A stretch of 64,000 nucleotides of DNA. Source: Eledone cirrhosa (Eukaryota). Where the stretch lies: NCBI GenBank assembly GCA_964016885.1, contig CAXHJY010000267.1:1-64000 (forward strand). The letters run 5' to 3'. This document shows, in pieces, positions 15,696 to 58,857 of the stretch (within the stretch, counting starts at the first letter, position 1; each line of letters starts with the position of its first letter). The position numbers and the translations under genes were made by a program. The notes under the pieces are model-generated. The model was not told the origin of the DNA and made no database searches. It saw nothing but the letters and a program-made list of their open reading frames with translations.

Positions 15696-16352
15696 GTTAT
15701 GTGAGGTAAAGCCTTTACTGTGAAAATACAATAGTATATATAGAGTAATGTAAATGTTATGTGAGGTATTATGTGAGGTAAAGCCTTTACTATGAAAATA
15801 CAATAGTATATATAGAGTAATGTAAATGTTATGTGAGATATTATGTGAGGTAAAGCCTTTACTGTGAAAATACAATAGTATATATAGAGTAATGTAAATG
15901 TTATGTGAGATATTATGTGAGGTAAAGCCTTTACTGTGAAAATACAATAGTATATATAGAGTAATGTAAATGTTATGTGAGGTAAAGCCTTTACTGTGAA
16001 AATACAATAGTATATATAGAGTAATGTAAATGTTATGTGAGATATTATGTGAGGTAAAGCCTTTACTGTGAAAATACAATAGTATATATAGAGTAATGTA
16101 AATGTTATGTGAGATATTATGTGAGGTAAAGCCTTTACTGTGAAAATACAATAGTATATATAGAGTAATGTAAATGTTATGTGAGATATTATGTGAGGTA
16201 AAGCCTTTACTGTGAAAATACAATAGTATATATAGAGTAATGTAAATGTTATGTGAGATATTATGTGAGGTAAAGCCTTTACTGTGAAAATACAATAGTA
16301 TATATAGAGTAATATAAATGTTATGTGAGGTAAAGCCTTTACTGTGAAAATA
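15634..16352. repeat. 72/60-bp minisatellite derived from the MITE interior (~10 copies)
   Basis: Unit TTATGTGAGGTAAAGCCTTTACTGTGAAAATACAATAGTATATATAGAGTAATGTAAATG plus an optional 12-bp TTATGTGAGATA. It explains the repetitive ORFs at 15615-16471. Confidence 0.95.
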
Positions 16353-22300: not shown

Positions 22301-25300
22301 GTTAAGGGGTGTATATGTCCTATAGTACCTCCTACAGCTAGATAAACCCTGGTCAATACCAGGTGAGAGGGTGTACATGTCCTATAGTACCTCCTACAGC
22401 TAGATAAACCCTGGTCAATACCAGGTGAGAGGGTGTATATGTCCTATAGTATCTCCTACAGTTAGATAAACCCTGGTCAATACCAGGTGAGAGGGTGTAT
22501 ATGTCCTATAGTACCTCCTACAGCTAGATAAACCCTGGTCAATACCAGGTGAGAGGGTGTATATGTCCTATAGTATCTCCTACAGTTAGATAAACCCTGG
22601 TCAATACCAGGTGAGAGGGTGTATATGTCCTATAGTATCTCCTACAGCTAGATAAACCCTGGTCAATACCAGGTGAGAGGGTGTATATGTCCTATAGTAC
22701 CTCCTACAGCTAGATAAACCCTGGTCAATACCAGGTGAGAGGGTGTATATGTCCTATAGTATCTCCTACAGTTAGATAAACCCTGGTCAATACCAGGTGA
22801 GGGGGTGTATATGTCCTATAGTATCTCCTACAGTTAGATAAACCCTGGTCAATACCAGGTGAGGGGGTGTATATGTCCTATAGTATCTCCTACAGCTAGA
22901 TAAACCCTGGTCAATACCAGGTGAGAGGGTGTATATGTCCTATAGTATCTCCTACAGCTAGATAAACCCTGGTCAATACCAGGTGAGAGGGTGTATATGT
23001 CCTATAGTATCTCCTACAGTTAGATAAACCCTGGTCAATACCAGGTGAGAGGGTGTATATGTCCTATAGTATCTCCTACAGCTAGATAAACCCTGGTCAA
23101 TACCAGGTGAGAGGGTGTATATGTCCTATAGTACCTCCTACAGCTAGATAAACCCTGGTCAATACCAGGTTAGGGTGTATATGTCCTATAGTATCTCCTA
23201 CAGCTAGATAAACCCTGGTCAATACCAGGTGAGAGGGTGTATATGTCCTATAGTATCACCTACAGCTAGATAAACCCTGGTCAATACCAGGTGAGGGTGT
23301 ATGTCCTATAGTACCTCCTACAGCTAGATAAACCCTGGTCAATACCAGGTGAGAGGGTGTATATGTCCTATAGTACCTCCTACAGCTAGATAAACCCTGG
23401 TCAATACCAGGTGAGGGGGTGTATATGTCCTATAGTACCAGGTTAGGGGGTGTATATGTCCTATAGTACCTCATACAGCTAGATAAACCCTGGTCAATAC
23501 CAGGTTAGGGGGTATATGTCCTATAGTACCTCCTACAGCTAGATAAATCCTGGTCAATACCAGGTGAGGGGTGTATATGTCCTATAGTACCTCCTACAGC
23601 TAGATAAATCCTGGTCAATACCAGGTGAGGGGTGTATATGTCCTATAGTACCTCCTACAGCTAGATAAATCCTGGTCAATACCAGGTGAGGGGTGTATAT
23701 GTCCTATAGTATCTCCTACAGCTAGATAAACCCTGGTCAATACCAGGTTAGGGTGTATATGTCCTATAGTACCTCCTACAGCTAGATAAACCCTGGTCAA
23801 TACCAGGTGAGAGGGTGTATATGTCCTATAGTACCTCCTACAGCTAGATAAACCCTGGTCAATACCAGGTTAGGGTGTATATGTCCTATAGTATCTCCTA
23901 CAGCTAAATAAACCCTGGTCAATACCAGGTGAGGGGGTGTATATGTCCGATAGTACCAGGTTAAGGGGTGTATATGTCCTATAGTACCTCCTACAGCTAG
24001 ATAAACCCTGGTCAATACCAGGTGAGAGGGTGTACATGTCCTATAGTACCTCCTACAGCTACATAAACCCTGGTCACTACCAGGTGAGAGGGTGTATATG
24101 TCCTATAGTACCTCCTACAGCTAGATAAATCCTGGTCAAAACCAGGTAAGAGGGTGTATATGTCCTATAATACCTCCTACAGCTAGATAAACCCTGGTCA
24201 ATACCAGGTGAGGGGGTGTATATGTCCTATAGTATCTCCTACAGCTAGATAAACCCTGGTCAATACCAGGTGAGAGGGTGTATATGTCCTATAGTATCTC
24301 CTACAGCTAGATAAACCCTGGTCAATACCAGGTGAGAGGGTGTATATGTCCTATAGTACCTCCTACAGCTAGATAAACCCGAGTCAATACCAGGTGAGTG
24401 GTGTATATGTCCTATAGTATCTCCTACAGCTAGATAAACCCTGGTCACTACCAGGTGAGAGGGTGTATATGTCCTATAGTATCTCCTACAGCTAGATAAA
24501 CCCTGGTCAATACCAGGTGAGGGGTGTATATGTCCTATAGTACCTCCTACAGCTAGATAAACCCTGGTCAATACCAGGTGAGGGGTGTATATGTCCTATA
24601 GTACCTCCTACAGCTAGATAAACCCTGGTAAATACCAGGTGAGGGGTGTATATGTCCTATAGTACCTCCTACAGCTAGATAAACCCTGGTCAATACCAGG
24701 TGAGAGGGTGTATATGTCCGATAGTACCAGGTTAAGGGGTGTATATGTCCTATAGGATCTCCTACAGCTAGATAAACCCGAGTCAATACCAGGTGAGTGG
24801 TGTATATGTCCTATAGTATCTCCTACAGCTAGATAAACCCTGGTCAATACCAGGTGAGGGTGTATATGTCCTATAGTATCTCCTACAGCTAGATAAATCC
24901 TGGTCAATACCAGGTGAGAGGGTGTATATGTCCTATAGTACCTCCTACAGCTAGATAAACCCTGGTCAATACCAGGTGAGGGTGTATATGTCCTATAGTA
25001 TCTCCTACAGCTAGATAAACCCTGGTCAATACCAGGTGAGAGGGTGTATATGTCCTATAGTACCTCTTACAGCTAGATAGACCCTGGTCAATACCAGGTG
25101 AGGGGGTGTATATGTCCTATAGTACCTCCTACAGCTAGATAAACCCTGGTCAATACCAGGTGAGAGGGTGTATATGTCCTATAGTACCTCCTACAGCTAG
25201 ATAAACCCTGGTCAATACCAGCTTAGGGTGTATATGTCCTATAGTACCTCCTACAGCTAGATAAACCCTGGTCAATACCAGCTTAGGGTGTATATGTCCG

Positions 25301-28300
25301 ATAGTACCAGGTTAGGGTGTATATGTCCTATAGGATCTCCTACAGCTAGATAAACCCGAGTCAATACCAGGTGAGTGGTGTATATGTCCTATAGTACCTC
25401 CTACAGCTAGATAAACCCTGGTCAATGCCAGGTTAGGGGGTGTATATGTCCTATAGTACCTCCTACAGCTAGATAAACCCGAGTCAATACCAGGTGAGTG
25501 GTGTATATGTCCTATAGGATCTCCTACAGCTAGATAAACCCTGGTCAATACCAGGTGAGAGGGTGTATATGTCCTATAGTATCTCCTACAGCTAGATAAA
25601 CCCTGGTCAATACCAGGTGAGGGGGTGTATATGTCCTATAGTACCTCCTACAGCTAGATAAACCTTGGTTAATACCAGGTTAGAGGGTGTATATGTCCTA
25701 TAGTACCTCCTACAGCTAGATAAACCCTGGTCAATACCAGGTGAGGGTGTATATGTCCTATAGTATCTCCTACAGCTAGATAAATCCTGGTCAATACCAG
25801 GTGAGAGGGTGTATATGTCCTATAGTACCTCTTACAGCTAGATAAACCCTGGTCAATACCAGGTGAGAGGGGGTATATGTCCTATAGTACCTCTTACAGC
25901 TAGATAAACCCTGGTCAATACCAGGTGAGAGGGTGTATATGTCCTATAGTACCTCTTACAGCTAGATAAACCCTGGTCAATACCAGGTGAGAGGGTGTAT
26001 ATGTCCTATAGTACCTCCTACAGCTAGATAAACCCTGGTCAATACCAGGTGAGGGTGTATATGTCCTATAGTACCTCTTACAGCTAGATAGACCCTGGTC
26101 AATACCAGGTGAGAGGGTGTATATGTCCTATAGTATCTCCTACAGCTAGATAGACCCTGGTCAATACCAGGTGAGAGGGTGTATATGTCCTATAGTACCT
26201 CCTACAGCTAGATAAACCCTGGTCAATACCAGGTGAGAGGGTGTATATGTCCTATAGTACCTCCTACAGCTAGATAGACTCTGGTCAATACCAGGTGAGG
26301 GGGTGTATATGTCCTATAGTACATCTTACAGCTAGATAAACCCTGGTCAATACCAGGTGAGAGGGTGTATATGTCCTATAGTACCTCTTACAGCTAGATA
26401 AAGCCTGGTCAATACCAGGTGAGAGGGTGTATATGTCCTATAGTATCTCCTACAGCTAGATAAATCCTGGTCAATACCAGGTGAGAGGGTGTATATGTCC
26501 TATAGTACCTCCTACAGCTAGATAAACCCTGGTCAATACCAGGTGAGGGGGTGTATATGTCCTATAGTACCTCCTACAGCTAGATAAACCCTGGTCAATA
26601 CCAGGTGAGGGGGTGTACATGTCCTATAGTATCTCCTACAGCTAGATAAATCCTGGTCAATACCAGGTGAGGGGGTGTATATGTCCTATAGTACCTCCTA
26701 CAGCTAGATAAACCCTGGTCAATACCAGGTGAGAGGGTGTATATGTCCTATAGTATCTCCTACAGCTAGATAGACCCTGGTCAATACCAGGTGAGGGGGT
26801 GTATATGTCCTATAGTATCTCCTACAGCTAGATAAATCCTGGTCAATACCAGGTGAGGGTTGTATATGTCCTATAGTACCTCCTACAGCTAGATAAACCC
26901 TGGTCAATACCAGGTGAGGGTGTATATGTCCTATAGTATCTCCTACAGCTAGATAAATCCTGGTCAATACCAGGTGAGAGGGTGTATATGTCCTATAGTA
27001 CCTCTTACAGCTAGATAAACCCTGGTCAATACCAGGTGAGAGGGTGTATATGTCCTATAGTACCTCTTACAGCTAGATAGACCCTGGTCAATACCAGGTG
27101 AGGGGGTGTATATGTCCTATAGTACCTCCTAGAGCTAGATAAAGCCTGGTCAATACCAGGTGAGAGGGTGTATATGTCCTATAGTATCTCCTACAGCTAG
27201 ATAAACCCTGGTCAATACCAGGTGAGAGGGTGTATATGTCCTATAGTATCTCCTACAGCTAGATAAATCCTGGTCAATACCAGGTGAGAGGGTGTATATG
27301 TCCTATAGTACCTCCTACAGCTAGATAAACCCTGGTCAATACCAGGTGAGGGGGTGTATATGTCCTATAGTACCTCCTACAGCTAGATAAACCCTGGTCA
27401 ATACCAGATGAGGGGGTGTATATGTCCTATAGTATCTCCTACAGCTAGATAAATCCTGGTCAATACCAGGTGAGGGGTGTATATGTCCTATAGTACCTCC
27501 TACAGCTAGATAAACCCTGGTAAATACCAGGTGAGAGGGTGTATATGTCCTATAGTACCTCATACAGCTAGATAAAGCCTGGTCAATACCAGGTGAGAGG
27601 GTGTATATGTCAATACCAGCTTAGGGTGTATATGTCCTATAGTACCTCCTACAGCTAGATAAACCCTGGTCAATACCAGCTTAGGGTGTATATGTCCGAT
27701 AGTACCAGGTTAGGGTGTATATGTCCTATAGGATCTCCTACAGCTAGATAAACCCGAGTCAATACCAGGTGAGTGGTGTATATGTCCTATAGTACCTCCT
27801 ACAGCTAGATAAACCCTGGTCAATGCCAGGTTAGGGGGTGTATATGTCCTATAGTACCTCCTACAGCTAGATAAACCCGAGTCAATACCAGGTGAGTGGT
27901 GTATATGTCCTATAGGATCTCCTACAGCTAGATAAACCCTGGTCAATACCAGGTGAGAGGGTGTATATGTCCTATAGTATCTCCTACAGCTAGATAAACC
28001 CTGGTCAATACCAGGTGAGGGGGTGTATATGTCCTATAGTACCTCCTACAGCTAGATAAACCTTGGTTAATACCAGGTTAGAGGGTGTATATGTCCTATA
28101 GTACCTCCTACAGCTAGATAAACCCTGGTCAATACCAGGTGAGGGTGTATATGTCCTATAGTATCTCCTACAGCTAGATAAATCCTGGTCAATACCAGGT
28201 GAGAGGGTGTATATGTCCTATAGTACCTCTTACAGCTAGATAAACCCTGGTCAATACCAGGTGAGAGGGGGTATATGTCCTATAGTACCTCTTACAGCTA

Positions 28301-31300
28301 GATAAACCCTGGTCAATACCAGGTGAGAGGGTGTATATGTCCTATAGTACCTCTTACAGCTAGATAAACCCTGGTCAATACCAGGTGAGAGGGTGTATAT
28401 GTCCTATAGTACCTCCTACAGCTAGATAAACCCTGGTCAATACCAGGTGAGGGTGTATATGTCCTATAGTACCTCTTACAGCTAGATAGACCCTGGTCAA
28501 TACCAGGTGAGAGGGTGTATATGTCCTATAGTATCTCCTACAGCTAGATAGACCCTGGTCAATACCAGGTGAGAGGGTGTATATGTCCTATAGTACCTCC
28601 TACAGCTAGATAAACCCTGGTCAATACCAGGTGAGAGGGTGTATATGTCCTATAGTACCTCCTACAGCTAGATAGACTCTGGTCAATACCAGGTGAGGGG
28701 GTGTATATGTCCTATAGTACATCTTACAGCTAGATAAACCCTGGTCAATACCAGGTGAGAGGGTGTATATGTCCTATAGTACCTCTTACAGCTAGATAAA
28801 GCCTGGTCAATACCAGGTGAGAGGGTGTATATGTCCTATAGTATCTCCTACAGCTAGATAAATCCTGGTCAATACCAGGTGAGAGGGTGTATATGTCCTA
28901 TAGTACCTCCTACAGCTAGATAAACCCTGGTCAATACCAGGTGAGGGGGTGTATATGTCCTATAGTACCTCCTACAGCTAGATAAACCCTGGTCAATACC
29001 AGGTGAGGGGGTGTACATGTCCTATAGTATCTCCTACAGCTAGATAAATCCTGGTCAATACCAGGTGAGGGGGTGTATATGTCCTATAGTACCTCCTACA
29101 GCTAGATAAACCCTGGTCAATACCAGGTGAGAGGGTGTATATGTCCTATAGTATCTCCTACAGCTAGATAGACCCTGGTCAATACCAGGTGAGGGGGTGT
29201 ATATGTCCTATAGTATCTCCTACAGCTAGATAAATCCTGGTCAATACCAGGTGAGGGTTGTATATGTCCTATAGTACCTCCTACAGCTAGATAAACCCTG
29301 GTCAATACCAGGTGAGGGTGTATATGTCCTATAGTATCTCCTACAGCTAGATAAATCCTGGTCAATACCAGGTGAGAGGGTGTATATGTCCTATAGTACC
29401 TCTTACAGCTAGATAAACCCTGGTCAATACCAGGTGAGAGGGTGTATATGTCCTATAGTACCTCTTACAGCTAGATAGACCCTGGTCAATACCAGGTGAG
29501 GGGGTGTATATGTCCTATAGTACCTCCTACAGCTAGATAAAGCCTGGTCAATACCAGGTGAGAGGGTGTATATGTCCTATAGTATCTCCTACAGCTAGAT
29601 AAACCCTGGTCAATACCAGGTGAGAGGGTGTATATGTCCTATAGTATCTCCTACAGCTAGATAAATCCTGGTCAATACCAGGTGAGAGGGTGTATATGTC
29701 CTATAGTACCTCCTACAGCTAGATAAACCCTGGTCAATACCAGGTGAGGGGGTGTATATGTCCTATAGTACCTCCTACAGCTAGATAAACCCTGGTCAAT
29801 ACCAGATGAGGGGGTGTATATGTCCTATAGTATCTCCTACAGCTAGATAAATCCTGGTCAATACCAGGTGAGGGGTGTATATGTCCTATAGTACCTCCTA
29901 CAGCTAGATAAACCCTGGTAAATACCAGGTGAGAGGGTGTATATGTCCTATAGTACCTCATACAGCTAGATAAAGCCTGGTCAATACCAGGTGAGAGGGT
30001 GTATATGTCCTATAGTATCTCCTACAGCTAGATAAATCCTGGTCAATACCAGGTGAGAGGGTGTATATGTCCTATAGTACCTCCTACAGCTAGATAAACC
30101 CTGGTAAATACCAGGTGAGAGGGTGTATATGTCCTATAGTACCTCCTACAGCTAGATAAACCCTGGTCAATACCAGGTGAGGGGGTGTATATGTCCTATA
30201 GTACCTCCTACAGCTAGATAAACCCTGGTCAATACCAGGTGAGGGGGTGTACATGTCCTATAGTATCTCCTACAGCTAGATAAATCCTGGTCAATACCAG
30301 GTGAGGGGGTGTATATGTCCTATAGTACCTCCTACAGCTAGATAAACCCTGGTCAATACCAGGTGAGAGGGTGTATATGTCCTATAGTATCTCCTACAGC
30401 TAGATAGACCCTGGTCAATACCAGGTGAGGGGGTGTATATGTCCTATAGTACATCTTACAGCTAGATAAACCCTGGTCAATACCAGGTGAGAGGGTGTAT
30501 ATGTCCTATAGTATCTCCTACAGCTAGATAAACCCTGGTCAATACCAGGTGAGGGGTGTATATGTCCTATAGTACCTCCTACAGCTAGATAAACCCTGGT
30601 AAATACCAGGTGAGAGGGTGTATATGTCCTATAGTACCTCCTACAGCTAGATAAACCCTGGTCAATACCAGGTGAGGGGGTGTATATGTCCTATAGTACC
30701 TCCTACAGCTAGATAAACCCTGGTCAATACCAGGTGAGGGGGTGTACATGTCCTATAGTATCTCCTACAGCTAGATAAATCCTGGTCAATACCAGGTGAG
30801 GGGGTGTATATGTCCTATAGTACCTCCTACAGCTAGATAAACCCTGGTCAATACCAGGTGAGAGGGTGTATATGTCCTATAGTATCTCCTACAGCTAGAT
30901 AGACCCTGGTCAATACCAGGTGAGGGGGTGTATATGTCCTATAGTACATCTTACAGCTAGATAAACCCTGGTCAATACCAGGTGAGAGGGTGTATATGTC
31001 CTATAGTATCTCCTACAGCTAGATAAACCCTGGTCAATACCAGGTGAGGGGTCTATATGTCCTATAGTACCTCCTACAGCTAGATAAACCCTGGTCAATA
31101 CCAGGTGAGGGGTGTATATGTCCTATAGTACCTCCTACAGCTAGATAAACCCTGGTAAATACCAGGTGAGGGGTGTATATGTCCTATAGTACCTCCTACA
31201 GCTAGATAAACCCTGGTCAATACCAGGTGAGAGGGTGTATATGTCCGATAGTACCAGGTTAAGGGGTGTATATGTCCTATAGGATCTCCTACAGCTAGAT

Positions 31301-34300
31301 AAACCCGAGTCAATACCAGGTGAGTGGTGTATATGTCCTATAGTATCTCCTACAGCTAGATAAACCCTGGTCAATACCAGGTGAGGGTGTATATGTCCTA
31401 TAGTATCTCCTACAGCTAGATAAATCCTGGTCAATACCAGGTGAGAGGGTGTATATGTCCTATAGTACCTCCTACAGCTAGATAAACCCTGGTCAATACC
31501 AGGTGAGGGTGTATATGTCCTATAGTATCTCCTACAGCTAGATAAACCCTGGTCAATACCAGGTGAGAGGGTGTATATGTCCTATAGTACCTCTTACAGC
31601 TAGATAGACCCTGGTCAATACCAGGTGAGGGGGTGTATATGTCCTATAGTACCTCCTACAGCTAGATAAACCCTGGTCAATACCAGGTGAGAGGGTGTAT
31701 ATGTCCTATAGTACCTCCTACAGCTAGATAAACCCTGGTCAATACCAGCTTAGGGTGTATATGTCCTATAGTACCTCCTACAGCTAGATAAACCCTGGTC
31801 AATACCAGCTTAGGGTGTATATGTCCGATAGTACCAGGTTAGGGTGTATATGTCCTATAGGATCTCCTACAGCTAGATAAACCCGAGTCAATACCAGGTG
31901 AGTGGTGTATATGTCCTATAGTACCTCCTACAGCTAGATAAACCCTGGTCAATGCCAGGTTAGGGGGTGTATATGTCCTATAGTACCTCCTACAGCTAGA
32001 TAAACCCGAGTCAATACCAGGTGAGTGGTGTATATGTCCTATAGGATCTCCTACAGCTAGATAAACCCTGGTCAATACCAGGTGAGAGGGTGTATATGTC
32101 CTATAGTATCTCCTACAGCTAGATAAACCCTGGTCAATACCAGGTGAGGGGGTGTATATGTCCTATAGTACCTCCTACAGCTAGATAAACCTTGGTTAAT
32201 ACCAGGTTAGAGGGTGTATATGTCCTATAGTACCTCCTACAGCTAGATAAACCCTGGTCAATACCAGGTGAGGGTGTATATGTCCTATAGTATCTCCTAC
32301 AGCTAGATAAATCCTGGTCAATACCAGGTGAGAGGGTGTATATGTCCTATAGTACCTCTTACAGCTAGATAAACCCTGGTCAATACCAGGTGAGAGGGGG
32401 TATATGTCCTATAGTACCTCTTACAGCTAGATAAACCCTGGTCAATACCAGGTGAGAGGGTGTATATGTCCTATAGTACCTCTTACAGCTAGATAAACCC
32501 TGGTCAATACCAGGTGAGAGGGTGTATATGTCCTATAGTACCTCCTACAGCTAGATAAACCCTGGTCAATACCAGGTGAGGGTGTATATGTCCTATAGTA
32601 CCTCTTACAGCTAGATAGACCCTGGTCAATACCAGGTGAGAGGGTGTATATGTCCTATAGTATCTCCTACAGCTAGATAGACCCTGGTCAATACCAGGTG
32701 AGAGGGTGTATATGTCCTATAGTACCTCCTACAGCTAGATAAACCCTGGTCAATACCAGGTGAGAGGGTGTATATGTCCTATAGTACCTCCTACAGCTAG
32801 ATAGACTCTGGTCAATACCAGGTGAGGGGGTGTATATGTCCTATAGTACATCTTACAGCTAGATAAACCCTGGTCAATACCAGGTGAGAGGGTGTATATG
32901 TCCTATAGTACCTCTTACAGCTAGATAAAGCCTGGTCAATACCAGGTGAGAGGGTGTATATGTCCTATAGTATCTCCTACAGCTAGATAAATCCTGGTCA
33001 ATACCAGGTGAGAGGGTGTATATGTCCTATAGTACCTCCTACAGCTAGATAAACCCTGGTCAATACCAGGTGAGGGGGTGTATATGTCCTATAGTACCTC
33101 CTACAGCTAGATAAACCCTGGTCAATACCAGGTGAGGGGGTGTACATGTCCTATAGTATCTCCTACAGCTAGATAAATCCTGGTCAATACCAGGTGAGGG
33201 GGTGTATATGTCCTATAGTACCTCCTACAGCTAGATAAACCCTGGTCAATACCAGGTGAGAGGGTGTATATGTCCTATAGTATCTCCTACAGCTAGATAG
33301 ACCCTGGTCAATACCAGGTGAGGGGGTGTATATGTCCTATAGTATCTCCTACAGCTAGATAAATCCTGGTCAATACCAGGTGAGGGTTGTATATGTCCTA
33401 TAGTACCTCCTACAGCTAGATAAACCCTGGTCAATACCAGGTGAGGGTGTATATGTCCTATAGTATCTCCTACAGCTAGATAAATCCTGGTCAATACCAG
33501 GTGAGAGGGTGTATATGTCCTATAGTACCTCTTACAGCTAGATAAACCCTGGTCAATACCAGGTGAGAGGGTGTATATGTCCTATAGTACCTCTTACAGC
33601 TAGATAGACCCTGGTCAATACCAGGTGAGGGGGTGTATATGTCCTATAGTACCTCCTACAGCTAGATAAAGCCTGGTCAATACCAGGTGAGAGGGTGTAT
33701 ATGTCCTATAGTATCTCCTACAGCTAGATAAACCCTGGTCAATACCAGGTGAGAGGGTGTATATGTCCTATAGTATCTCCTACAGCTAGATAAATCCTGG
33801 TCAATACCAGGTGAGAGGGTGTATATGTCCTATAGTACCTCCTACAGCTAGATAAACCCTGGTCAATACCAGGTGAGGGGGTGTATATGTCCTATAGTAC
33901 CTCCTACAGCTAGATAAACCCTGGTCAATACCAGATGAGGGGGTGTATATGTCCTATAGTATCTCCTACAGCTAGATAAATCCTGGTCAATACCAGGTGA
34001 GGGGTGTATATGTCCTATAGTACCTCCTACAGCTAGATAAACCCTGGTAAATACCAGGTGAGAGGGTGTATATGTCCTATAGTACCTCATACAGCTAGAT
34101 AAAGCCTGGTCAATACCAGGTGAGAGGGTGTATATGTCCTATAGTATCTCCTACAGCTAGATAAATCCTGGTCAATACCAGGTGAGAGGGTGTATATGTC
34201 CTATAGTACCTCCTACAGCTAGATAAACCCTGGTAAATACCAGGTGAGAGGGTGTATATGTCCTATAGTACCTCCTACAGCTAGATAAACCCTGGTCAAT

Positions 34301-37161
34301 ACCAGGTGAGAGGGTGTATATGTCCTATAGTACCTCATACAGCTAGATAAATCCTGGTCAATACCAGGTGAGAGGGTGTATATGTCCTATAGTACCTCCT
34401 ACAGCTAGATAAACCCTGGTCAATACCAGGTGAGAGGGTGTATATGTCCTATAGTACCTCTTACAGCTAGATAGACCCTGGTCAATACCAGGTGAGGGGT
34501 GTATATGTCCTATAGGATCTCCTACAGCTAGATAAACCCTGGTCAATACCAGGTGAGAGGGTGTATATGTCCTATAGTACCTCCTACAGCTAGATAAACC
34601 TTGGTCAATACCAGGTGAGAGGGTGTATATGTCCTATAGTATCTCCTACAGCTAGATAAACCTTGGTTAATACCAGGTTAGAGGGTGTATATGTCCTATA
34701 GTACCTCCTACAGCAAGATAAACCCTGGTCAATACCAGGTTAGGGGGTATATGTCCTATAGGATCTCCTACAGCTAGATAAACCCTGGTCAATACCAGGT
34801 GAGGGGGTATATGTCCTATAGGATCTCCTACAGCTAGATAAACCCTGGTCAATACCAGGTGAGAGGGTGTATATGTCCTATAGTACCTCCTACAGCTAGA
34901 TAAACCTTGGTCAATACCAGGTGAGAGGGTGTATATGTCCTATAGTATCTCCTACAGCTAGATAAACCTTGGTTAATACCAGGTTAGAGGGTGTATATGT
35001 CCTATAGTACCTCCTACAGCAAGATAAACCCTGGTCAATACCAGGTTAGGGGGTATATGTCCTATAGGATCTCCTACAGCTAGATAAACCCTGGTCAATA
35101 CCAGGTGAGGGGGTATATGTCCTATAGGATCTCCTACAGCTAGATAAACCCTGGTCAATACCAGGTGAGAGGGTGTATATGTCCTATAGTATCTCCTACA
35201 GCTAGATAAACCCTGGTCAATACCAGGTGAGAGGGTGTATATGTCCTATAGTACCTCCTACAGCTAGATAGACCCTGGTCAATACCAGGTGAGGGGGTGT
35301 ATATGTCCTATAGTACCTCCTACAGCTAGATAAACCCTGGTCAATACCAGGTGAGAGGGTGTATATGTCCTATAGTACCTCCTACAGCTAGATAGACCCC
35401 TGGTCAATACCAGGTGAGGGGGTGTATATGTCCTATAGTACATCTTACAGCTAGATAAACCCTGGTCAATACCAGGTGAGTGGTGTATATGTCCTATAGT
35501 ACCTCCTACAGCTAGATAAACCCTGGTCAATACCAGGTGAGAGGGTGTATATGTCCTATAGTATCTCCTACAGCTAGATAAACCCTGGTCAATACCAGGT
35601 GAGAGGGTGTATATGTCCTATAGTACCTCCTACAGCTAGATAAACCCTGGTCAATACCAGGTTAGAGGGTGTATATGTTCCTATAGTACCTCCTACAGCT
35701 AGATAAACCCTGGTCAATACCAGGTGAGAGGGTGTATATGTCCTATAGTATCTCCTACAGCTAGATAAACCCTGGTCAATACCAGGTGAGGGGTGTATAT
35801 GTCCTATAGGATCTCCTACAGCTAGATAAACCCTGGTCAATACCAGGTGAGGGGTGTATATGTCCTATAGTATCTCCTACAGCTAGATAAACCCTGGTCA
35901 ATACCAGGTGAGAGGGTGTATATGTCCTATAGTATCTCCTACAGCTAGATAAACCCTGGTCAATACCAGGTGAGAGGGTGTATATGTCCTATAGTACCTC
36001 CTACAGCTAGATAAACCCTGGTAAATACCAGGTGAGAGGGTGTATATGTCCTATAGTACCTCCTACAGCTAGATAAACCCTGGTCAATACCAGGTGAGAG
36101 GGTGTATATGTCCTATAGTACCTCCTACAGCTAGATAAACCCTGGTCAATACCAGGTGAGAGGGTGTATATGTCCTATAGTATCTCCTACAGCTAGATAA
36201 ACCCTGGTCAATACCAGGTGAGAGGGTGTATATGTCCTATAGTATCTCCTACAGCTAGATAAACCCTGGTCAATACCAGGTGAGAGGGTGTATATGTCCT
36301 ATAGTACCTCCTACAGCTAGATAAACCCTGGTCAATACCAGGTGAGAGGGTGTATGTCCTATAGTACCTCCTACAGCTAGATAAACCTTGGTTAATACCA
36401 GGTGAGAGGGTGTATATGTCCTATAGTATCTCCTACAGCTAGATAAACCCTGGTCAATACCAGGTGAGAGGGTGTATATGTCCTATAGTACCTCCTACAG
36501 CTAGATAAACCCTGGTCAATACCAGATGAGAAGGCGTATGTCCTATAGTATCTCCTACAGCTAGATAAACCCTGGTCAATACCAGGTGAGAGGGTGTATG
36601 TCCTATAGTACCTCCTACAGCTAGATAAACCCTGGTCAATACCAGGTGAGAGGGTGTATATGTCCGATAGTACCAGGTTAGGGGGTGTATATGTCCTATA
36701 GGATCTCCTACAGCTAGATAAACCCTGGTCAATACCAGGTGAGTGGTGTATATGTCCTATAGTACCTCCTACAGCTAGATAAACCCTGGTCAATACCAGG
36801 TGAGAGGGTGTATATGTCCTATAGTATCTCCTACAGCTAGATAAATCCTGGTCAATACCAGGTTAGAGGGTGTATATGTCCTATAGTACCTCCTACAGCT
36901 AGATAAACCTTGGTCAATACCAGGTGAGAGGGTGTATATGTCCTATAGTACCTCCTACAGCTAGATAAACCCTGGTCAATACCAGGTGAGGGGGTGTATA
37001 TGTCCTATAGTACCTCCTATAGCTAGATAAACCCTGGTCAATCCCAGATGAGGGGGTGTATATGTCCTATAGTACATCCTACAGCTAGATAAACCCTGGT
37101 CAATACCAGGTGAGGGGGTGTATATGTCCTATAGTACCTCCTACAGCTAGATAAACCCTGG
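16349..37161. repeat. 62-bp tandem satellite (~340 copies) with 60/61-bp and ~31-bp half-unit variants
   Basis: Unit AATACCAGGTGAGAGGGTGTATATGTCCTATAGTA[C/T]CTCCTACAGCTAGATAAACCCTGGTC. Most unit junctions form the hairpin CCTGGT-CAAT-ACCAGG. Confidence 0.98.
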
Positions 37162-50169: not shown

Positions 50170-50278
50170 AGGCACAAGGCCAGCAATTAACCCAGTGTAT
50201 TACTGGTACTTTATTTTATTGACCCCGTAAGGATGAAAGGCAAAGTTAACCTCGGTGGGATTTGAACTCAGAATGGCA
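50170..50278 (-). mobile_element. tRNA-derived SINE fragment with Meta-domain-like core
   Basis: Minus strand reads GAGTTCAAATCCC (B-box-like) then ACCGAGGTTAACTTTGCCTTTCATCCTTACGGGGTCAATAAAATAAAGTACCAG, resembling the MetaSINE/Sauria-type core (recalled). Several copies occur in the window. Confidence 0.75.
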
Positions 50279-50279
50279 T

Positions 50280-50443
50280 ATATAATGAATATATAATGTA
50301 TATATAATGAAAGGACTGAGACAGGTATATAATATATACATACATACAAGTATATTTATATGTTCATAGACAATATATATGTATATATACACACATATAT
50401 GTATATATATAATGAAATGATTGAGACATAGGTATATAATATA

Positions 50444-50451
<8 letters not shown>
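50280..50451. repeat. TA-rich ~100-bp minisatellite, left part (split by the LINE)
   Basis: TATAATGAAA[T/G]GA[C/T]TGAGACA...GGTATATAATATATA units match 53986-54365. Confidence 0.8.
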
Positions 50452-50475
<24 letters not shown>

Positions 50476-50745
50476 AATTATTGTGTACAGTGCTCAGGTG
50501 CACTACAACTCATCAAAGGTGCATGTATAATACATAGAATAATGTACAAATGTCAGGAAAATGAACAGTGTATGAGTCATGATATAATAACAATAACAAT
50601 AATGAAATATTTGTACAGTGCCCAGGTGCACCACAACTCATCAAAAAAGTGCATGTACAGTACATAGGGCAATACACAAACATCAGTAAAATGAAAAGTG
50701 CACGAGTCATGATACACATGTGTGCATGTGTATGGAAGGGGTACA

Positions 50746-53511
50746 TCAGGTGTAGTTTTGGCGTATTTCGGGAAGCATAAGTGTCTTAAAGGATGCAGTG
50801 TCTCGGCAGCTAACAACTGACGCAGGCAGTTTGTTCCATGCTTCAGCAACTCTGAGCGTGAAAAAATGTCTACGAAAGTCATGGGAGCTGTGCTGTTTTC
50901 TGATCTTGTAGGCATGTCCACGTGTGTTAGACACATGGAGATCAAAGAGGCGCTCAGGGTTGCAGTTGGCGAGATGGTTAAAAACTTTGTGGGTATTCAC
51001 CAAGTTCATTGCCAGACGTCAGAGCTTCAATGAATCCATGCCCAGGGAAGCAAGGCGTTCAGAGTATGGTAGGTGTCTGATGGAGGGTATGCGCTTGGTT
51101 GCACGTCTCTGAACAGTTTCCAGGAGGTCAATGTTCCGAGCAAGATAGGGGTTCCAGACTGATGATGCGAATTCCAAGTGTGGTCGCACCATAGCTGTAT
51201 ACAGTTTTAAATAGATGGCTGGAGAGCGGCTAACAAAGGTCTTGCTGAGTGATGCCAAGACACCCTCGGCCTTCTTGACAATCTTAGAGACATGCTTTGT
51301 CCAACGCAAATCGTTGCTGACAGTAATGCCCAGGTCACGTTCACAAGAGGACTTTTTGATATCAGTGTTGTGGAGGGAGTATGTGGACGCTGGATTTTTC
51401 CTTCCAAAATGCATGGTGGTACACTTGTCCACAGCCAGCTTCAGTTGCCAGTCTGTGATCCATTGCTGCATTGTGTCCAGGTCTGATTGTAGGAAAGAGT
51501 TGTAAATTTCAGGATCAGCCTTTTTGATTTCAAGGTACAGCTTGATGTCATCTGCATATTTTAGTACCGTGGCATTCTGTAAGTTGGCATCTATGTCATT
51601 AATATATGCCACAAACAAAAGAGGACCAAGAACAGATCCCTGTGGTACACCAGATGATATCGCATATGGTGAAGAATGCTGTCCTAGAACCGTGACTACT
51701 TCCTTTCGGCTGAGAATGAAGGATTTCAACCAGTCGAAAAGATCATCCCTCACACCCATTGCAGAGAGTTTTGCCATAAGTCTTTTGTGTGGCACAGAAT
51801 TAAAAGCCTTAGCAAAGTCAAGGTAAACAACATCCACCCATGAGCCGCTGTCAGTGATCCGGGTGATGTCCTCAAGGAACTCGATAAGCTGATCACAGGA
51901 GCTGGAGTTAGGGATAAATCCAAACTGTGAGGGCCGGATGAGGCTGTGAGAGCTCCAGAAGTTCCAAAGTGTTTCTCTGACACAGGATTCCATCAGTTTG
52001 GCCATACAGCTAGTAAGACTGACTGGACGATAGTTGACAGGTGACATGCGGTTGCCCTTTTTGAACAGGGGAATGACACTGGCAGTTTTCCACTGCTCCG
52101 GAGTAGCACCATTGTTGAGACAGTATTGAAAGAAGAAAGAAAGCTGGCGCAAAAGGAAATACCCGCCACGTTTGAGAAGCAGGTATGTCACACCATCAAG
52201 ACCAGGGGAGGCATAGTTGCGCTTATTCTTAAGGTGACGTCGCAACATTGCAGGTGTAAATTCCATAGTTGTTATGGAATTTGATGTTAGAGATGGTGGA
52301 GATGGTACATTCTGGTTTTCAACAGTAAAAATACTTGCATAGCACTCAGCAATGAGTTCTGCACATTCCTTGGGATCGTCAGTGATCTGGTTTGTGTGGG
52401 GATTGCGAAGAGGACCAACTGGAGAGTGAGGTCTCTGCTTTGAATGAACATATTTCCAGAACACCTTACTGTCAGGATTGGTTGCGATGCACTGTTCAAA
52501 TTCAAGCACTGCCTTCTTTGTCACTTGCTTGAGATGGTTAGAAGATTTATTCCACTTTTTTCTGTTGGCATCTGATTTATGCAGTTTATATTCCCGTTCA
52601 GCGTTCCGACGTTCTTTCCTGGCAAGTCGGACCGCTGAAGTTTCCCAGATTGCACTTTTGGGGTGGTTATTTTTCCGCTTCCGTGGCATTGATGCTGCAC
52701 ATGCTATCCATATTGAGTCCAGGATGCTCTGGAGTATAGAGTTCACATCTCCAGAGTTATACATCTCATGCCAGTTTGAGCGCTGTAGCTCAGTGCAGTA
52801 CAAGTTCCAATCCGCCCTCTTCCAATCAAAGCAAGCAGATTGGAGATGGCTCTGGTTTTTGTTGCTGCCCTCAAGTGCCAGATTGGCAATGATCATAGCA
52901 TGATCATAGTCGCCTAGAGGTTCCTCAGTAGTACAACTGATAACCACTTCAGGAGTAGTGGTGAAGATCAGGTCCAAAGTGTTGTCACCTCTTGTTGGAG
53001 AGGTGACTACTTGTGACCAGTTTGAGTCCAGCACTAGTTCAAGGAAATCGTTTGCACCTTGTGGCCAACGAAAGGTTTCCCAATCGATCTCAGGATGATT
53101 GAAGTCACCTGCAATAAACACATAAGTGGCTGTTTTCTTGGCAGCAACTCTGAGGATATCGCAAAGCTGTGTGTCCTGATGGTAGTTTGGGGGACGATAA
53201 ACAACACCAAGCAGAAGTGTTGACATGGTCATACGTATGTCACAGAAAAAAACTTCTTCCTGTGATTCGTTCAAATCAACGCAAGGAATTACTGAAAAGT
53301 TTGAACGAACGTAGACCATCACACCACCACCACGGCGGTTAATGCGGTCCTTGCGGAAAAGGTTGTACCCAGTAATGCTGAAAACCCCATCACAGAGTAA
53401 GGAATGTGCCCATGTTTCCGTGACTGTGATGAAGTCAGGGTCGATGCTTCTCACGTAGGATTCGAACAGATGTATCTTGTTGCATAAACTGCGAGCATTT
53501 AAGGACAACAA
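50746..53511 (-). CDS. LINE ORF2: apurinic endonuclease + reverse transcriptase (~920 codons, one premature TGA at 51019-51021)
   Basis: APE motifs LNARS, ITVTETW, GVVYRPP, AGDFNHP, TLDLIFT, DH. RT motifs NYRPVSLTS, QFGF, YLDFAKAFNSV, GVPQGSVLGPLLF, YADD, ERDLGI. The CR1-type tail (TRGHAYK...RRHFFTLRVAEAWNKLP) continues in frame past the stop to 50746. Confidence 0.95.
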
Positions 53512-53567
53512 TTTGTACCCTGCTCGCAGTTTATGATGGTGTGTAGAGGGTGGCAGGTTGTTCTGGT

Positions 53568-53985
53568 TTAGTTTCCCAGAGTTGTAGCAGTTTTTACATT
53601 GCCAGTTATTGTGGGTAGATCACACTCAGACCAGCTGGTATCTCTCTTCCACGTTTCACCAGCCTTGACAAACCTCCAGATCTGCCCATCATCACGCAGA
53701 CTAAAACTTTCATCTTGTGCTGAGTTCCGATTCAAGGAAGCTGCAGCACGTAGCTTTGGACGTACATGGGGTGGTAGGCCTGGGCGTGTTCGGAAGGTAA
53801 TCCGATTTTCACGCCCAGCTTTAGCAGAGGCCAGATGATATGAGGTTGCCTCTGCGGGGTCCGAAAAAGACAGCCTGATGAGTCTGGGTTTTGGACCAGG
53901 TCGACCAAGGCGGAGAGCACCCGTTGGGGGAACACAGCCTAGGTCTTTGGCTGAGCTGGCAGCAAATGCCTGAAGATCAGCCTTG
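53568..53985 (-). CDS. LINE ORF1 C-terminal portion (5'-truncated)
   Basis: [16 protein letters not shown]...[20 protein letters not shown]...TTLGN*. The RLGR...PRLIRLxF motif is typical of CR1/L2-type ORF1 proteins. The upstream part of the called ORF is microsatellite. Confidence 0.75.
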
Positions 53986-54027
53986 TATATATATACATAC
54001 AAGTATATACAATAGACGTGTATATAT

Positions 54028-54640: not shown

Positions 54641-54719
54641 AAGTATATATTATATTATATTATATTATAAACAATTATATTATATTATATTATATAGTAA
54701 TAATAATTGTTTTTACTTT

Positions 54720-54840
54720 TGGCACAAGGCCAGCTATTACCCAGTGCATTACTGGTACTTTATTTTATCGACCCCGTAAGGATGAAAGGCAAAGTTAACC
54801 TCGGCGGGATTTGAACTCAGATCATACAGGGAGGTAACTC
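54720..54840 (-). mobile_element. SINE copy (same family as 50170)
   Basis: GGCACAAGGCCAG...CGACCCCGTAAGGATGAAAGGCAAAGTTAACCTCGGCGGGATTTGAACTCAG. Confidence 0.78.
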
Positions 54841-54859: not shown

Positions 54860-55176
54860 AATTATTAATAATGTATATAAATATGTATATATATATATAT
54901 AATATAATTATTAATAATATATATACATATAAATATGTATATATATATATATATAATATAACTATTAATAATATATATACATATAAATATGTATATAATA
55001 TAATTATTAATAATGTATACACATATAAATATGTATATATATATAATATAATTATTAATAGTGTATACACATATAAATATGTATATATATACATATAAAT
55101 ATGTATATAATATAATTATTAATAATGTATACACATATAAATATGTATATATATATAATATAATTATTTATACTTA
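54860..55176. repeat. AT-rich tandem repeats attached to the SINE 3' end
   Basis: AATATAATTATTAATAAT...CATATAAATATGTATA units; the reverse complement occurs at 56416-56628. Confidence 0.8.
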
Positions 55177-55298
55177 TGGCACAAGGCCAGCAATATACCA
55201 GTGTATTACTGGTACTTTATTTTATCGACCCCGTAAGGATGAAAGGCAAAGTCAACCTCGGTGGGATTTGAACTCAGAATGGCAAGGGCCGTAACTCA
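55177..55298 (-). mobile_element. SINE copy (a further partial copy at 55325-55370)
   Basis: Same core as 50170 and 54720. Confidence 0.78.
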
Positions 55299-55379
55299 AT
55301 GCGTCAAAAATTCTTTCTACTATTGGCACAAGGCCAGCAATTAACTAGTACATTACTGGTATTTATTTTATAGTAATAA

Positions 55380-56415: not shown

Positions 56416-56988
56416 AAGTATAAATAATTATATTATATATATATACATATTTATATGTATATATATTATTAATAATTATATTATATATATATACATTATT
56501 AATAATTATATTATATATATATACATATTTATATGTATATATATTATTAATAATTATATTATATATATATACATTATTAATAATTATATTATATATATAT
56601 ACATATTTATATGTATATATATTATTAATGTTCGATATAACACATACGTACATATGTATGTGTGTGTGTGTATATATATATATGCGTGTGTACATGTGCA
56701 TAATTACATTTATGTATACATAAATAAATGTATGCATACATCTGTATACATATATACACACATATGTATGTTTGTACACTATATATATATATATGGATGA
56801 ATGCACATATTTATAGAGAGATAGACAAAGCTTTTTCTTTCTTTTCCTCATCATATTGCAGTTTGAGTGGTCTTATACACGCATAACCTCGTAGGTAGCA
56901 ACCTTATAGTCAAGGCTAGATAAACTCAACAGCAGAGGACAACCTTGAGGAGATTAATGTGGAAGTTGAAGAACCCCACCGCCAGTAG

Positions 56989-57742
56989 ACCACTTTACAG
57001 TGTGGACTGGGTACTTTTTGTCGTGACACCTACACAACCACTTTACAGTGTGGACTGGGTACTTTTTGTCATGACACCTACATGACCACTTTACAGTGTG
57101 GACTGGGTACTTTTTGTCATGACACCTACATGACCACTCTACAGTGTGGACTGGGTACTTTTTGTCGTGACACCTACACAACCACTTTACAGTGTGGACT
57201 GGGTACTTTTTGTCGTGACACCTACATGACCACTTTACAGTGTGGACTGGGTACTTTTTGTCGTGACACCTACACAACCACTTTACAGTGTGGACTGGGT
57301 ACATTTTGTCGTGACACCTACACAACCACTTTACAGTGTGGACTGGGTACATTTTGTCGTGACACCTACACAACCACTTTACAGTGTGGACTGGGTACTT
57401 TTTGTCGTGACACATACACAACCACTTTACAGTGTGGACTGGGTACTTTTTGTCGTGACACCTACACAACCACTTTACAGTGTGGACTGGGTACTTTTTG
57501 TCGTGACACCTACACAACCACTTTACAGTGTGGACTGGGTACTTTTTGTCGTGACACCTACACAACCACTTTACAGTGTGGACTGGGTACTTTTTGTCGT
57601 GACACCTACACAACCACTTTACAGTGTGGATTGGGTGCTTTTTGTTGTGTCACCTACACAAGCACTTTTCATGGTGGACTGGGTACTTTTTGTTGTGTCA
57701 CCTACACAACCACTTTTCAGTGTGGACTGAGTACTTTTTGTC
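56989..57742. repeat. 48-bp minisatellite (~16 copies)
   Basis: Unit ACCACTTTACAGTGTGGACTGGGTACTTTTTGTCGTGACACCTACACA. It explains the 16-aa periodic ORFs. Confidence 0.96.
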
Positions 57743-57756
57743 AGACATATAATGAT

Positions 57757-58552
57757 ATAATAATGAAATTATTGTGTACAGTGCTCAGGTGCACTACAAC
57801 TCATCAAAGGTGCATGTATAGTACATAGAATAATGTACTAATGTCAGGAAAATGAACAGTGTAACAGTCATGATTTACACACAGATACATGTATGCGTGT
57901 GTATGGAGGGGGGATCTCAGGAAGCATGGAGGTTTTAAAGGATGCAGTGTCTCAACAGCTAACAACTGATGCAGGTAGTTTGCTCCATGGAGGTTTTAAA
58001 GGATGCAGTGTCTCCACAGCTAACAACTGATGCAGGTAGTTTGTTCCAAGGAGGTTTTAAAGGATGCAGTGTCTCGACAGCTAACAACTGATGCAGGTAG
58101 TTTGTTCCATGGAGGTTTTAAAGGATGCAGTGTCTCGACAGCTAACAACTGATGCAGGTAGTTTGTTCCATGGAGGCCTTAAAGGATGCAGTGTCTCCAC
58201 AACTAACAACTAATGCAGGCAGTTTGTTCCATGCTTCAGCAACTTTGAGCGTAAAAAAATATTTCCGAAAGTCATGGGAGCTGTGCTGTTTTCTGACTTT
58301 GTGGGCATGTCCACGTGCGATAGACACATGGAATTCAAAAAGGTGCTCAGGATTGTTGTTGGAAAGATGGTTAATCATTTTGTGGGTGTCTACCAAGTCA
58401 GTTGCCAGGCGTCGGAGCTTCAATGTATCCATGCCCAGGGCAGCAAGGCGCTCAAAGTATGGTAGATGCCTTATGGAGGGTATTCGCTTGGTTGCACGAC
58501 TCTGAACAGTTTCCAGGAGGTCAATGTTCTGAGCAAGATAGGGGTTCCAGAC
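57757..58552 (-). mobile_element. Second, heavily 5'-truncated copy of the CR1 LINE (ORF2 C-terminus + 3' UTR)
   Basis: VWNPYLAQNIDLLETVQSRATKRIPSIRHLPY...AEAWNKLP aligns with 51159-50780; the 3' UTR matches 50470-50582. Confidence 0.92.
57925..58229. repeat. 61-bp tandem amplification (5 copies) of a LINE ORF2 segment
   Basis: CATGGAGGTTTTAAAGGATGCAGTGTCTC...CAGCTAACAACTGATGCAGGTAGTTTGTTC at 57925, 57986, 58047, 58108 and 58169; single copy in the long LINE (~50776-50840). Confidence 0.93.
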
Positions 58553-58857
58553 AACCAAACATACACAACCCAATCACAAAATATTTACAACAACAAATGT
58601 TAATAGTTTTATTTTGAAATTTGATATTTATTCAATTTTTTTGCCATATATGGTAATTTGTATATAGATATCAAAAAGAAAGAAAGAAATGAAAAAAAAA
58701 AGAAAAAGAAAAACAAGTTTTATTGAATGTATTAATAATACATTGATTGTTGTTGTTGTTGGATTAATTTAATAATTTTTTTTTAGGTTTTTAAAAAATT
58801 TTTTTTATTGTAAACTGCTCCTGTGATATGACATAAAAAAACAGAGGTTATCTACAT

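Follow-up and report, generated by a model that had tools for sequence, protein, structure and literature searches.

How LINE (long interspersed element) RNAs give rise to the product of their second open reading frame (ORF2) is understood for few elements, namely L1 and SART1, both of which use reinitiation, and the question is raised again by a CR1-like LINE copy on the minus strand of the window, i.e. the whole 64,000-nucleotide (nt) stretch of Eledone cirrhosa DNA analysed here (contig CAXHJY010000267.1). In this copy the ORF1 frame ends CTG GGA AAC TAA, which places a G_GGA_AAC heptamer in the X_XXY_YYZ zero-frame phase next to the stop codon, and ORF2 occupies the -1 frame relative to ORF1. 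An earlier note on this DNA had pointed to the heptamer and stop, both confirmed here on the minus strand (Table 1), and had read them as the source of a retrovirus-like ORF1-ORF2 fusion, a reading supported at the sequence level, since relatives keep the heptamer in the same phase together with the -1 overlap. Since the heptamer and stop are combined with an ORF2 in the -1 frame that has no AUG before its endonuclease motifs, we consider it likely that ORF2 is made by programmed -1 frameshifting on G_GGA_AAC, as an ORF1-ORF2 fusion. A -1 frameshift signal would most simply account for what is a real, conserved junction. From its C-terminal motifs and 3' tail we take the element to be probably CR1-like.

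The claim that the -1 frame is open from 53619 through the endonuclease and reverse transcriptase (RT) holds: it spans 866 codons before a premature stop (51021-51019) ends it (ORF2 has 957 codons in intact copies) and matches the Pfam families Exo_endo_phos (PF03372), PF14529 and RVT_1 (PF00078), as well as L1 ORF2p by profile, while a PDB search with the single endonuclease-region sequence gave chance matches only. The N of LNARS (53499-53497) and the E of TETW (53418-53416, both minus strand), presumably the catalytic residues of the endonuclease, lie in motifs that align in a family profile with the N14 and E43 regions of human L1 ORF2p. The first ATG of the frame, at 53319-53317, is downstream of both motifs; the earlier note was right that none precedes them but had placed this ATG near residue 65, and it is residue 101 of the open frame, or codon 87 counted from the heptamer. 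Near-cognate CTG and TTG codons are present in the ORF2 frame. The copy starts at ~53986, inside ORF1, downstream of a (TA)-rich microsatellite, and retains only the last ~139 ORF1 codons; being both 5'-truncated and interrupted by a premature stop it is dead, and the proposed mechanism therefore concerns full-length members. Fuller copies carry ORF1 frames of 440-480 codons, with a Cys pattern near the N-terminus (by eye), a low-complexity middle and a basic C-terminal domain. ORF1 gave no Pfam match above the cut-off, the best Atlas lead (score 0.90) being PF25298 over 36% of one cluster. In loci L002-L030 the ORF1 middle contains CAG/CAA-type poly-Gln and poly-His repeats of highly variable length and a repeated PATVSSPAIPVEEHHHH unit, with a poly-Gln tract of ~70 Gln in L014.

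Table 1. Positions in the window of the CR1-like copy and of the elements of its ORF1/ORF2 junction (APE, apurinic/apyrimidinic endonuclease; UTR, untranslated region; A and B, the two subfamilies described in the text).
Feature	Position	Strand	Remark
ORF1 3' part of 5'-truncated CR1-like LINE copy, end ...TLGN*	53568..53986	-	
TGA in ORF2 (-1) frame	53620..53622	-	5' limit of ORF1/ORF2 overlap
33-nt island around heptamer and stop	53551..53583	-	one A/B difference
G_GGA_AAC slippery heptamer	53571..53577	-	X_XXY_YYZ phase of ORF1
ORF1 stop codon TAA	53568..53570	-	adjoins heptamer on 3' side
In-frame CTG	53554..53556	-	14 nt past heptamer, 11 nt past TAA; candidate non-AUG start
Candidate stimulator ACAAC...GTTGT	53505..53561	-	not significant, not formed in B
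Hairpin with perfect 15-bp stem	53483..53535	-	starts 35 nt past heptamer
First ATG of ORF2 frame, within endonuclease domain	53317..53319	-	GGGVM
ORF2 from heptamer: short linker, APE endonuclease, RT	51019..53577	-	
ORF2 remainder past premature stop	50746..51018	-	
3' UTR with duplicated segment, ATT repeats at end	50440..50745	-	approximate limits, direct reading

The same arrangement could in principle reflect a private 1-nt insertion or deletion in a decayed copy whose family has a single ORF or an ATG; the premature stop and 5' truncation would suit such an origin, and some CR1/L2 subgroups do have a single ORF, according to passages of one survey (PMC4120745). A DNA search of the 3.0-Gb genome returned 1295 candidates, the best 40 of which were scored, and in 40/40 of these the junction shows no net indel; heptamer, stop and overlap were likewise kept in 30/30 of the best DNA matches fetched, a sample biased toward the query. 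Because of this bias we also used endonuclease-only queries, which gave 90 loci and, once three lacking an endonuclease start had been dropped, 73 distinct copies. Heptamer and stop are in place in 69 of the 73; of the other four, one has a point change, one a 1-nt deletion further downstream, and two are truncated. No in-frame ATG lies between heptamer and LNARS in those copies of this set that have an ORF1 tail. When copies were chosen by an ORF1 query alone, the junction was kept in 47/50 (two internal deletions and one point change account for the others). The heptamer and the -1 arrangement are the family state and not an indel, and with the 40 scored matches and both independently chosen sets in agreement, a private indel is refuted. 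The earlier note had named an ATG upstream of LNARS, or a fused consensus, as what would speak against its proposal; the family has neither.

Two subfamilies, ~82% identical in nucleotides, were found in the genome: A, to which the window copy belongs, and B. Queries with P0001, P0002, P0003, P0130 and the 58150-58580 fragment returned only these two among the loci examined, which were the best candidates scored, and other families may exist. Over 129 ORF1 codons A and B differ by 47 synonymous versus 21 non-synonymous changes, counts which indicate that ORF1 is under purifying selection between them. As protein, neither the last 23 ORF1 codons (1 synonymous, 9 non-synonymous) nor the ORF2 linker (2 and 8) is constrained. 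Between these two stretches, a 33-nt island around heptamer and stop holds one A/B difference, synonymous in the ORF2 frame, compared to 27/102 sites (26%) in its flanks (binomial P 5e-4, for a window picked post hoc). ORF1 and ORF2 overlap by 52 nt in subfamily A and 19 nt in subfamily B; B keeps heptamer and stop and has a -1 frame stop only 3 codons upstream of the heptamer, so any shift must fall within the 19-nt overlap.

Subfamily B also contains a GA6 run just upstream of the junction, which brings in polymerase slippage on a nearby A run as an explanation, the added base fusing the two frames in some transcripts or copies. Run-length variants do occur: in three B copies (L091, L092 and L247) the A run before the heptamer has changed length and ORF1 and ORF2 lie in one frame, which in L091 (G000:C4:367.25 Mb) and L092 (C3:19.22 Mb) comprises 1381 codons each. 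We nonetheless regard slippage as very improbable, as subfamily A has no A run next to the junction, the more distant locus L145 (below) has a -1 frame stop between its A run and the heptamer, L091 and L092 carry different changes and are two among the 150 matches listed per search, and no longer (fused) ORF1 relatives were seen among 1146 candidates, itself a weak test.

Outside this genome, the heptamer and stop show no change at a share of at least 25% in contigs of organisms C and H; coverage in runs X9 and X10 was slight or absent. The metagenome locus L145 is 54% identical over the endonuclease region and has junction flanks unrelated to those of subfamilies A and B. Its ORF1, which has one frame break further upstream, ends CAG GGA AAC TAG, its ORF2 opens in the -1 frame 2 codons before the heptamer, and the distance from heptamer to NARS is 25 codons versus 26. 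No relatives were found in viral contigs or plasmids.

More distant ORF1 proteins carry a footprint of the same site. From a profile search we took 104 relatives, each standing for one 50% cluster, and 12 without the end of the last conserved domain were dropped; the 92 kept include P0121 (66% identical in the last domain, ending VGN), itself part of the query. The tails beyond the domain are variable in length and sequence, and Gly-Asn occurs in 70/92 of them, versus 11.9 +/- 3.0 in shuffles (maximum 23 in 2000) and 20 for the reversed Asn-Gly. Allowing GN, EN or KN raises the count to 87/92, against 31 in shuffles, and the residue before GN is in no case (0/70) one whose codons are unable to end in G (background 20%, P 2e-7). 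Gly-Asn lies 2-36 residues past the last domain and 0-23 before the stop, which it adjoins in 13/70 tails; judged from these sequences, such a floating position is the pattern of an elongation signal and not of a stop-coupled one. The earlier note's call for a conservation check is answered in favour of the heptamer by subfamily B, the contigs of the two other organisms, L145 and these 70 tails. Where Gly-Asn is not terminal in the P0121-P0224 tails, it is followed by G, E, D, A or V in 42/57 cases, so the base following the heptamer would mostly be G, possibly a 3' context effect.

A conserved junction might also serve a different purpose, for instance in RNA packaging or as an S/Q-G-N motif at the ORF1 C-terminus, with ORF2 translated from a different RNA (spliced or internally started) or through entry resembling that at an internal ribosome entry site. 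S or Q precedes GN in 54/70 tails, and a 5-bp hairpin over part of the heptamer and the stop (53582-53564, minus strand) folds in both subfamilies (one G-C pair is G-U in B), and the island may therefore be a structural RNA element. KN or EN replaces GN in 17 more tails, however, a substitution that is not conservative as a protein change and fits X_XXA_AAC at the nucleotide level. Separate production of ORF2 also leaves the bias to the -1 phase described below unaccounted for, and for splicing in particular no polypyrimidine tract was seen by eye before AG dinucleotides after the stop. We consider this explanation improbable.

The phase bias emerges from a wider set of CR1-like loci. Seventy out of 80 metagenome loci had an intact endonuclease start, and these form, together with A and B, 51 clusters at 70% identity (19 at 50%). 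With its phase read against the last ORF1 piece, ORF2 falls in the -1 frame in 41 of the 51 clusters, in the same frame in 2, mixed in 1, without a call in 7 and purely +1 in none, calls made with an ORF1 profile trained on the same loci. A tally by longest ORF (31 at -1, 8 at +1, 12 none) was rejected, as indels inside ORF1, including that of L145, misled it. No in-frame ATG precedes the NARS motif in 23/41 of the -1 clusters. For the 30 clusters that have a long -1 ORF1 (another was excluded for its ambiguous bases), a canonical heptamer stands in the slip phase in 18, versus 4 and 2 in the other phases; with codons resampled and the protein held fixed, 7.8 are expected (P 3e-6), and relaxed slip sites number 27 versus 14.2 expected (P 5e-8), both P values being optimistic since the clusters are kin. 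The slip site often lies 1-5 codons past the opening of the -1 frame, and the overlap then continues for 60-210 nt. L227, an esterase-type element, ends ORF1 with T TTA AAC TAG and has ORF2 in -1, and a single base in a G run sets its near twin L226 apart. Both lie on contigs in two bacterial metagenome-assembled genomes and are evidently animal DNA in those bins. In one related group (L150, L152, L158, L159, L174, L176) a -1 overlap of 82 nt is kept, but the homologous site has G-rich or U-rich runs in place of a canonical heptamer; this group may use another shift site or reinitiation. It seems to us fairly probable that -1 frameshifting, with a Gag-Pol-like fusion product, is the default ORF2 route across much of the CR1-like LINE radiation.

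Most known frameshift stimulators start 6-9 nt past the heptamer, some at 12-15 nt, and some act single-stranded, according to parts of a 2016 recoding review (PMC5009743). The stimulator put forward in the earlier note, ACAAC...GTTGT, does not hold up: it is the best fold only within 60 nt (-9.8 kcal/mol, z -0.84), is outcompeted in subfamily A by the 15-bp hairpin and is absent in B. The hairpin in A, which the earlier note had overlooked, is strong (-28 kcal/mol, z -5.4 to -7.3, 0/200 shuffles as good), and we rejected it as a classical stimulator for its 35-nt spacer; an apparent compensatory pair within it (+40/+84) is not robust, some B copies having T at +40. A has a possible pseudoknot, in which a 5-bp stem from +10 pairs into the hairpin loop and the energy comes from the long stem, and which B does not keep. 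No hairpin starting at +4 to +13 is better than shuffles in either subfamily, the best at 5-9 nt reaching -0.7 and -1.2 kcal/mol in A and B, respectively (30/40 and 24/40 shuffles as good). The canonical frameshift cassette is incomplete in subfamilies A and B, lacking a 3' structure at 5-9 nt. L145 has a hairpin from +6 (-14.7 kcal/mol, 0/40 shuffles as good).

These observations bear most directly on reinitiation, the main rival, in which a few ribosomes would restart at the CTG 11 nt past TAA, aided by the hairpin, and make a separate ORF2p, the heptamer being a bystander or an ORF1 protein motif. Both subfamilies retain the CTG and an A at its -3 position within the conserved island, and the strong hairpin lies 18 nt downstream of this codon; SART1 needs downstream structure, according to passages of two papers (PMC5972666, PMC3708506), and L1 ORF2 initiation is described as AUG-independent in part of the recoding review (PMC5009743). 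The missing canonical stimulator in A and B points the same way. Set against this, L145 keeps exactly G_GGA_AAC yet has no CTG, and reinitiation explains neither the Gly-Asn floating 0-23 residues before the stop nor the near-constant -1 frame of ORF2 with long overlaps kept open; in addition, there is no UAAUG overlap, the first in-frame ATG is codon 87, and the 15-bp hairpin is weak in subfamily B. On balance we hold reinitiation to be unlikely. Two related routes were rejected outright. For a termination upstream ribosome-binding site, a UGGGA would be expected 40-90 nt before the stop; in the 150 nt upstream, A and B have just one, which overlaps the heptamer at 8 nt from the stop, and L145 has none. 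For A-to-I editing creating an AUG, there is no in-frame ATA between stop and LNARS in A or B.

Under -1 frameshifting, most ribosomes would read Gly-Asn and then stop, releasing ORF1p, and a minority would slip back one base, tRNA-Gly and tRNA-Asn re-pairing on GGG AAA, to continue via ...TLGNLNQNN through a free linker of ~25 residues into the endonuclease and RT. The fusion product would have ~1,400 residues (457 + about 940, the ORF1 start being uncertain). As subfamilies A and B have no structure at 5-9 nt, we would further suggest, with less assurance, that the rate of shifting is probably low, a few percent or less; the shift would then depend on the heptamer itself, on the neighbouring stop or on conserved single-stranded 3' sequence. 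L1 needs far more ORF1p than ORF2p, and a low rate would suit an element with such a need.

G_GGA_AAC is the site type of SRV-1, HERV-K, lentiviruses and PEG10. Passages of the recoding review place it among the shiftiest heptamers for mammalian ribosomes, and list X_XXY_YYZ sites in retroviral gag-pro and gag-pol, PEG10 and PNMA3 (PMC5009743). The junction resembles the retroviral -1 sites in heptamer class and phase, in having a structural RNA-binding ORF first and the polymerase ORF in -1, and in a -1 frame that opens just before the heptamer; it differs in its host, a non-LTR (long terminal repeat) retrotransposon without a protease to cut the fusion, in the lack of a stimulator at 5-9 nt in A and B, and in the stop directly after the heptamer. 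For the Dictyostelium elements TRE5-A and TRE3-A, also non-LTR and APE-type, a review figure legend gives a -1 frameshift as required for ORF2 (PMC5911963); they belong to a different clade and host. The gag of the Drosophila telomeric non-LTR element HeT-A is said to need frameshifting (PMC5009743), but there the shift is inside gag and, unlike in the CR1-like family, there is no RT ORF; the same 2016 review, in the parts concerned, treats HeT-A as the non-LTR frameshift case and mammalian LINE ORF2 as an initiation puzzle. SART1 has UAAUG and L1 an AUG after a 63-nt spacer, as given in part of PMC5972666. The present family shares with them a bicistronic LINE RNA, and a hairpin, strong in A and weak in B, lies downstream, where SART1 requires a structure; the family differs in having no AUG before the endonuclease motifs and in ORFs that overlap in -1 over a conserved heptamer. 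Type IIC ORF1 of CR1/L2 elements is described as a PHD, a coiled coil, an RRM and a C-terminal domain (PMC4120745, in part); the family has the same APE plus RT ORF2 and an ORF1 that seems to have a Cys-rich N-terminus, low-complexity middle and basic C-terminal domain. The word ‘frameshift’ is absent from the main text of that survey, and passages of PMC1925062, PMC5006619 and PMC7175516 say nothing on a CR1 slippery site. Across titles and the beginnings of abstracts, among which older and subscription papers are poorly covered, slippery-site frameshifting for CR1 ORF2 was neither proposed nor tested. Older descriptions suggest frameshifting for single insect LINEs.

Several observations weigh against frameshifting as the route to ORF2, beyond the shared training of the frame calls and the kinship of the clusters given above. 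There is no conserved structure 5-9 nt past the heptamer in A and B, and the one strong hairpin stands off by a 35-nt gap, is reduced in subfamily B to its 9-bp base (z -1.8) and has two pairs broken in organism C. The conserved island contains the CTG, and two places in the endonuclease are as conserved as the island. G_GGA_AAC at the ORF1 end is seen as DNA in three lineages (A, B and L145), the 92 ORF1 relatives being protein sequences only, without codons or downstream frames, in which S/Q-G-N could be a protein motif. Finally, an upstream start may be available to some relatives: in L145 an ATG stands 2 codons upstream of the NARS asparagine, in 18/41 of the -1 clusters at least one in-frame ATG precedes the NARS motif, and for 18/120 ORF2 relatives a start, of whichever codon, is called 2-6 codons before NARS.

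Should ORF2 be made by -1 frameshifting across these elements, LINEs would have a third, widespread way of expressing ORF2, in addition to AUG reinitiation and to single-ORF or 2A arrangements. The enzyme of many animal LINEs would be a fusion carrying its own RNA-binding ORF1 part, which would bear on cis preference and on the ORF1p:ORF2p ratio, and these LINEs would be exposed to the host factors and tRNA states that tune frameshifting. Annotation would have to be corrected, ATG-less ORF2s and -1 overlaps in repeat libraries being functional and not decay, and a site that works without nearby structure would be of interest in its own right to the recoding field.

Some further features of the genome and window were noted. 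In the genome, 31 listed copies of subfamily A, in G000:C28 (124.71-126.35 Mb) and also in C178 and C1185, are spaced at roughly 35-70 kb and all lie on one strand; most have an intact 957-codon ORF2, and the subfamily A element appears to be part of a large unit that is repeated in tandem. The 2633-codon frame found at G000:C5 was rejected as a microsatellite. In the window, 58175-58552 (minus strand) holds a subfamily B 3' fragment with 61-nt tandem repeats after it, and a 39-nt minisatellite at 56954-57828 gives rise to spurious repeat ORFs. Positions 1-14000 (50% GC, GC skew about +0.4) and 16000-36000 (a uniform 44% GC) are probably two satellite arrays. Copies of a short interspersed element (SINE)-like repeat with a B-box-like GAGTTCAAATCC start lie at approximately 55170-55345, 54710-54820 and 50170-50275 (minus strand); we take this repeat to resemble an octopus SINE, the flanking repeats being likewise octopus-like in look.

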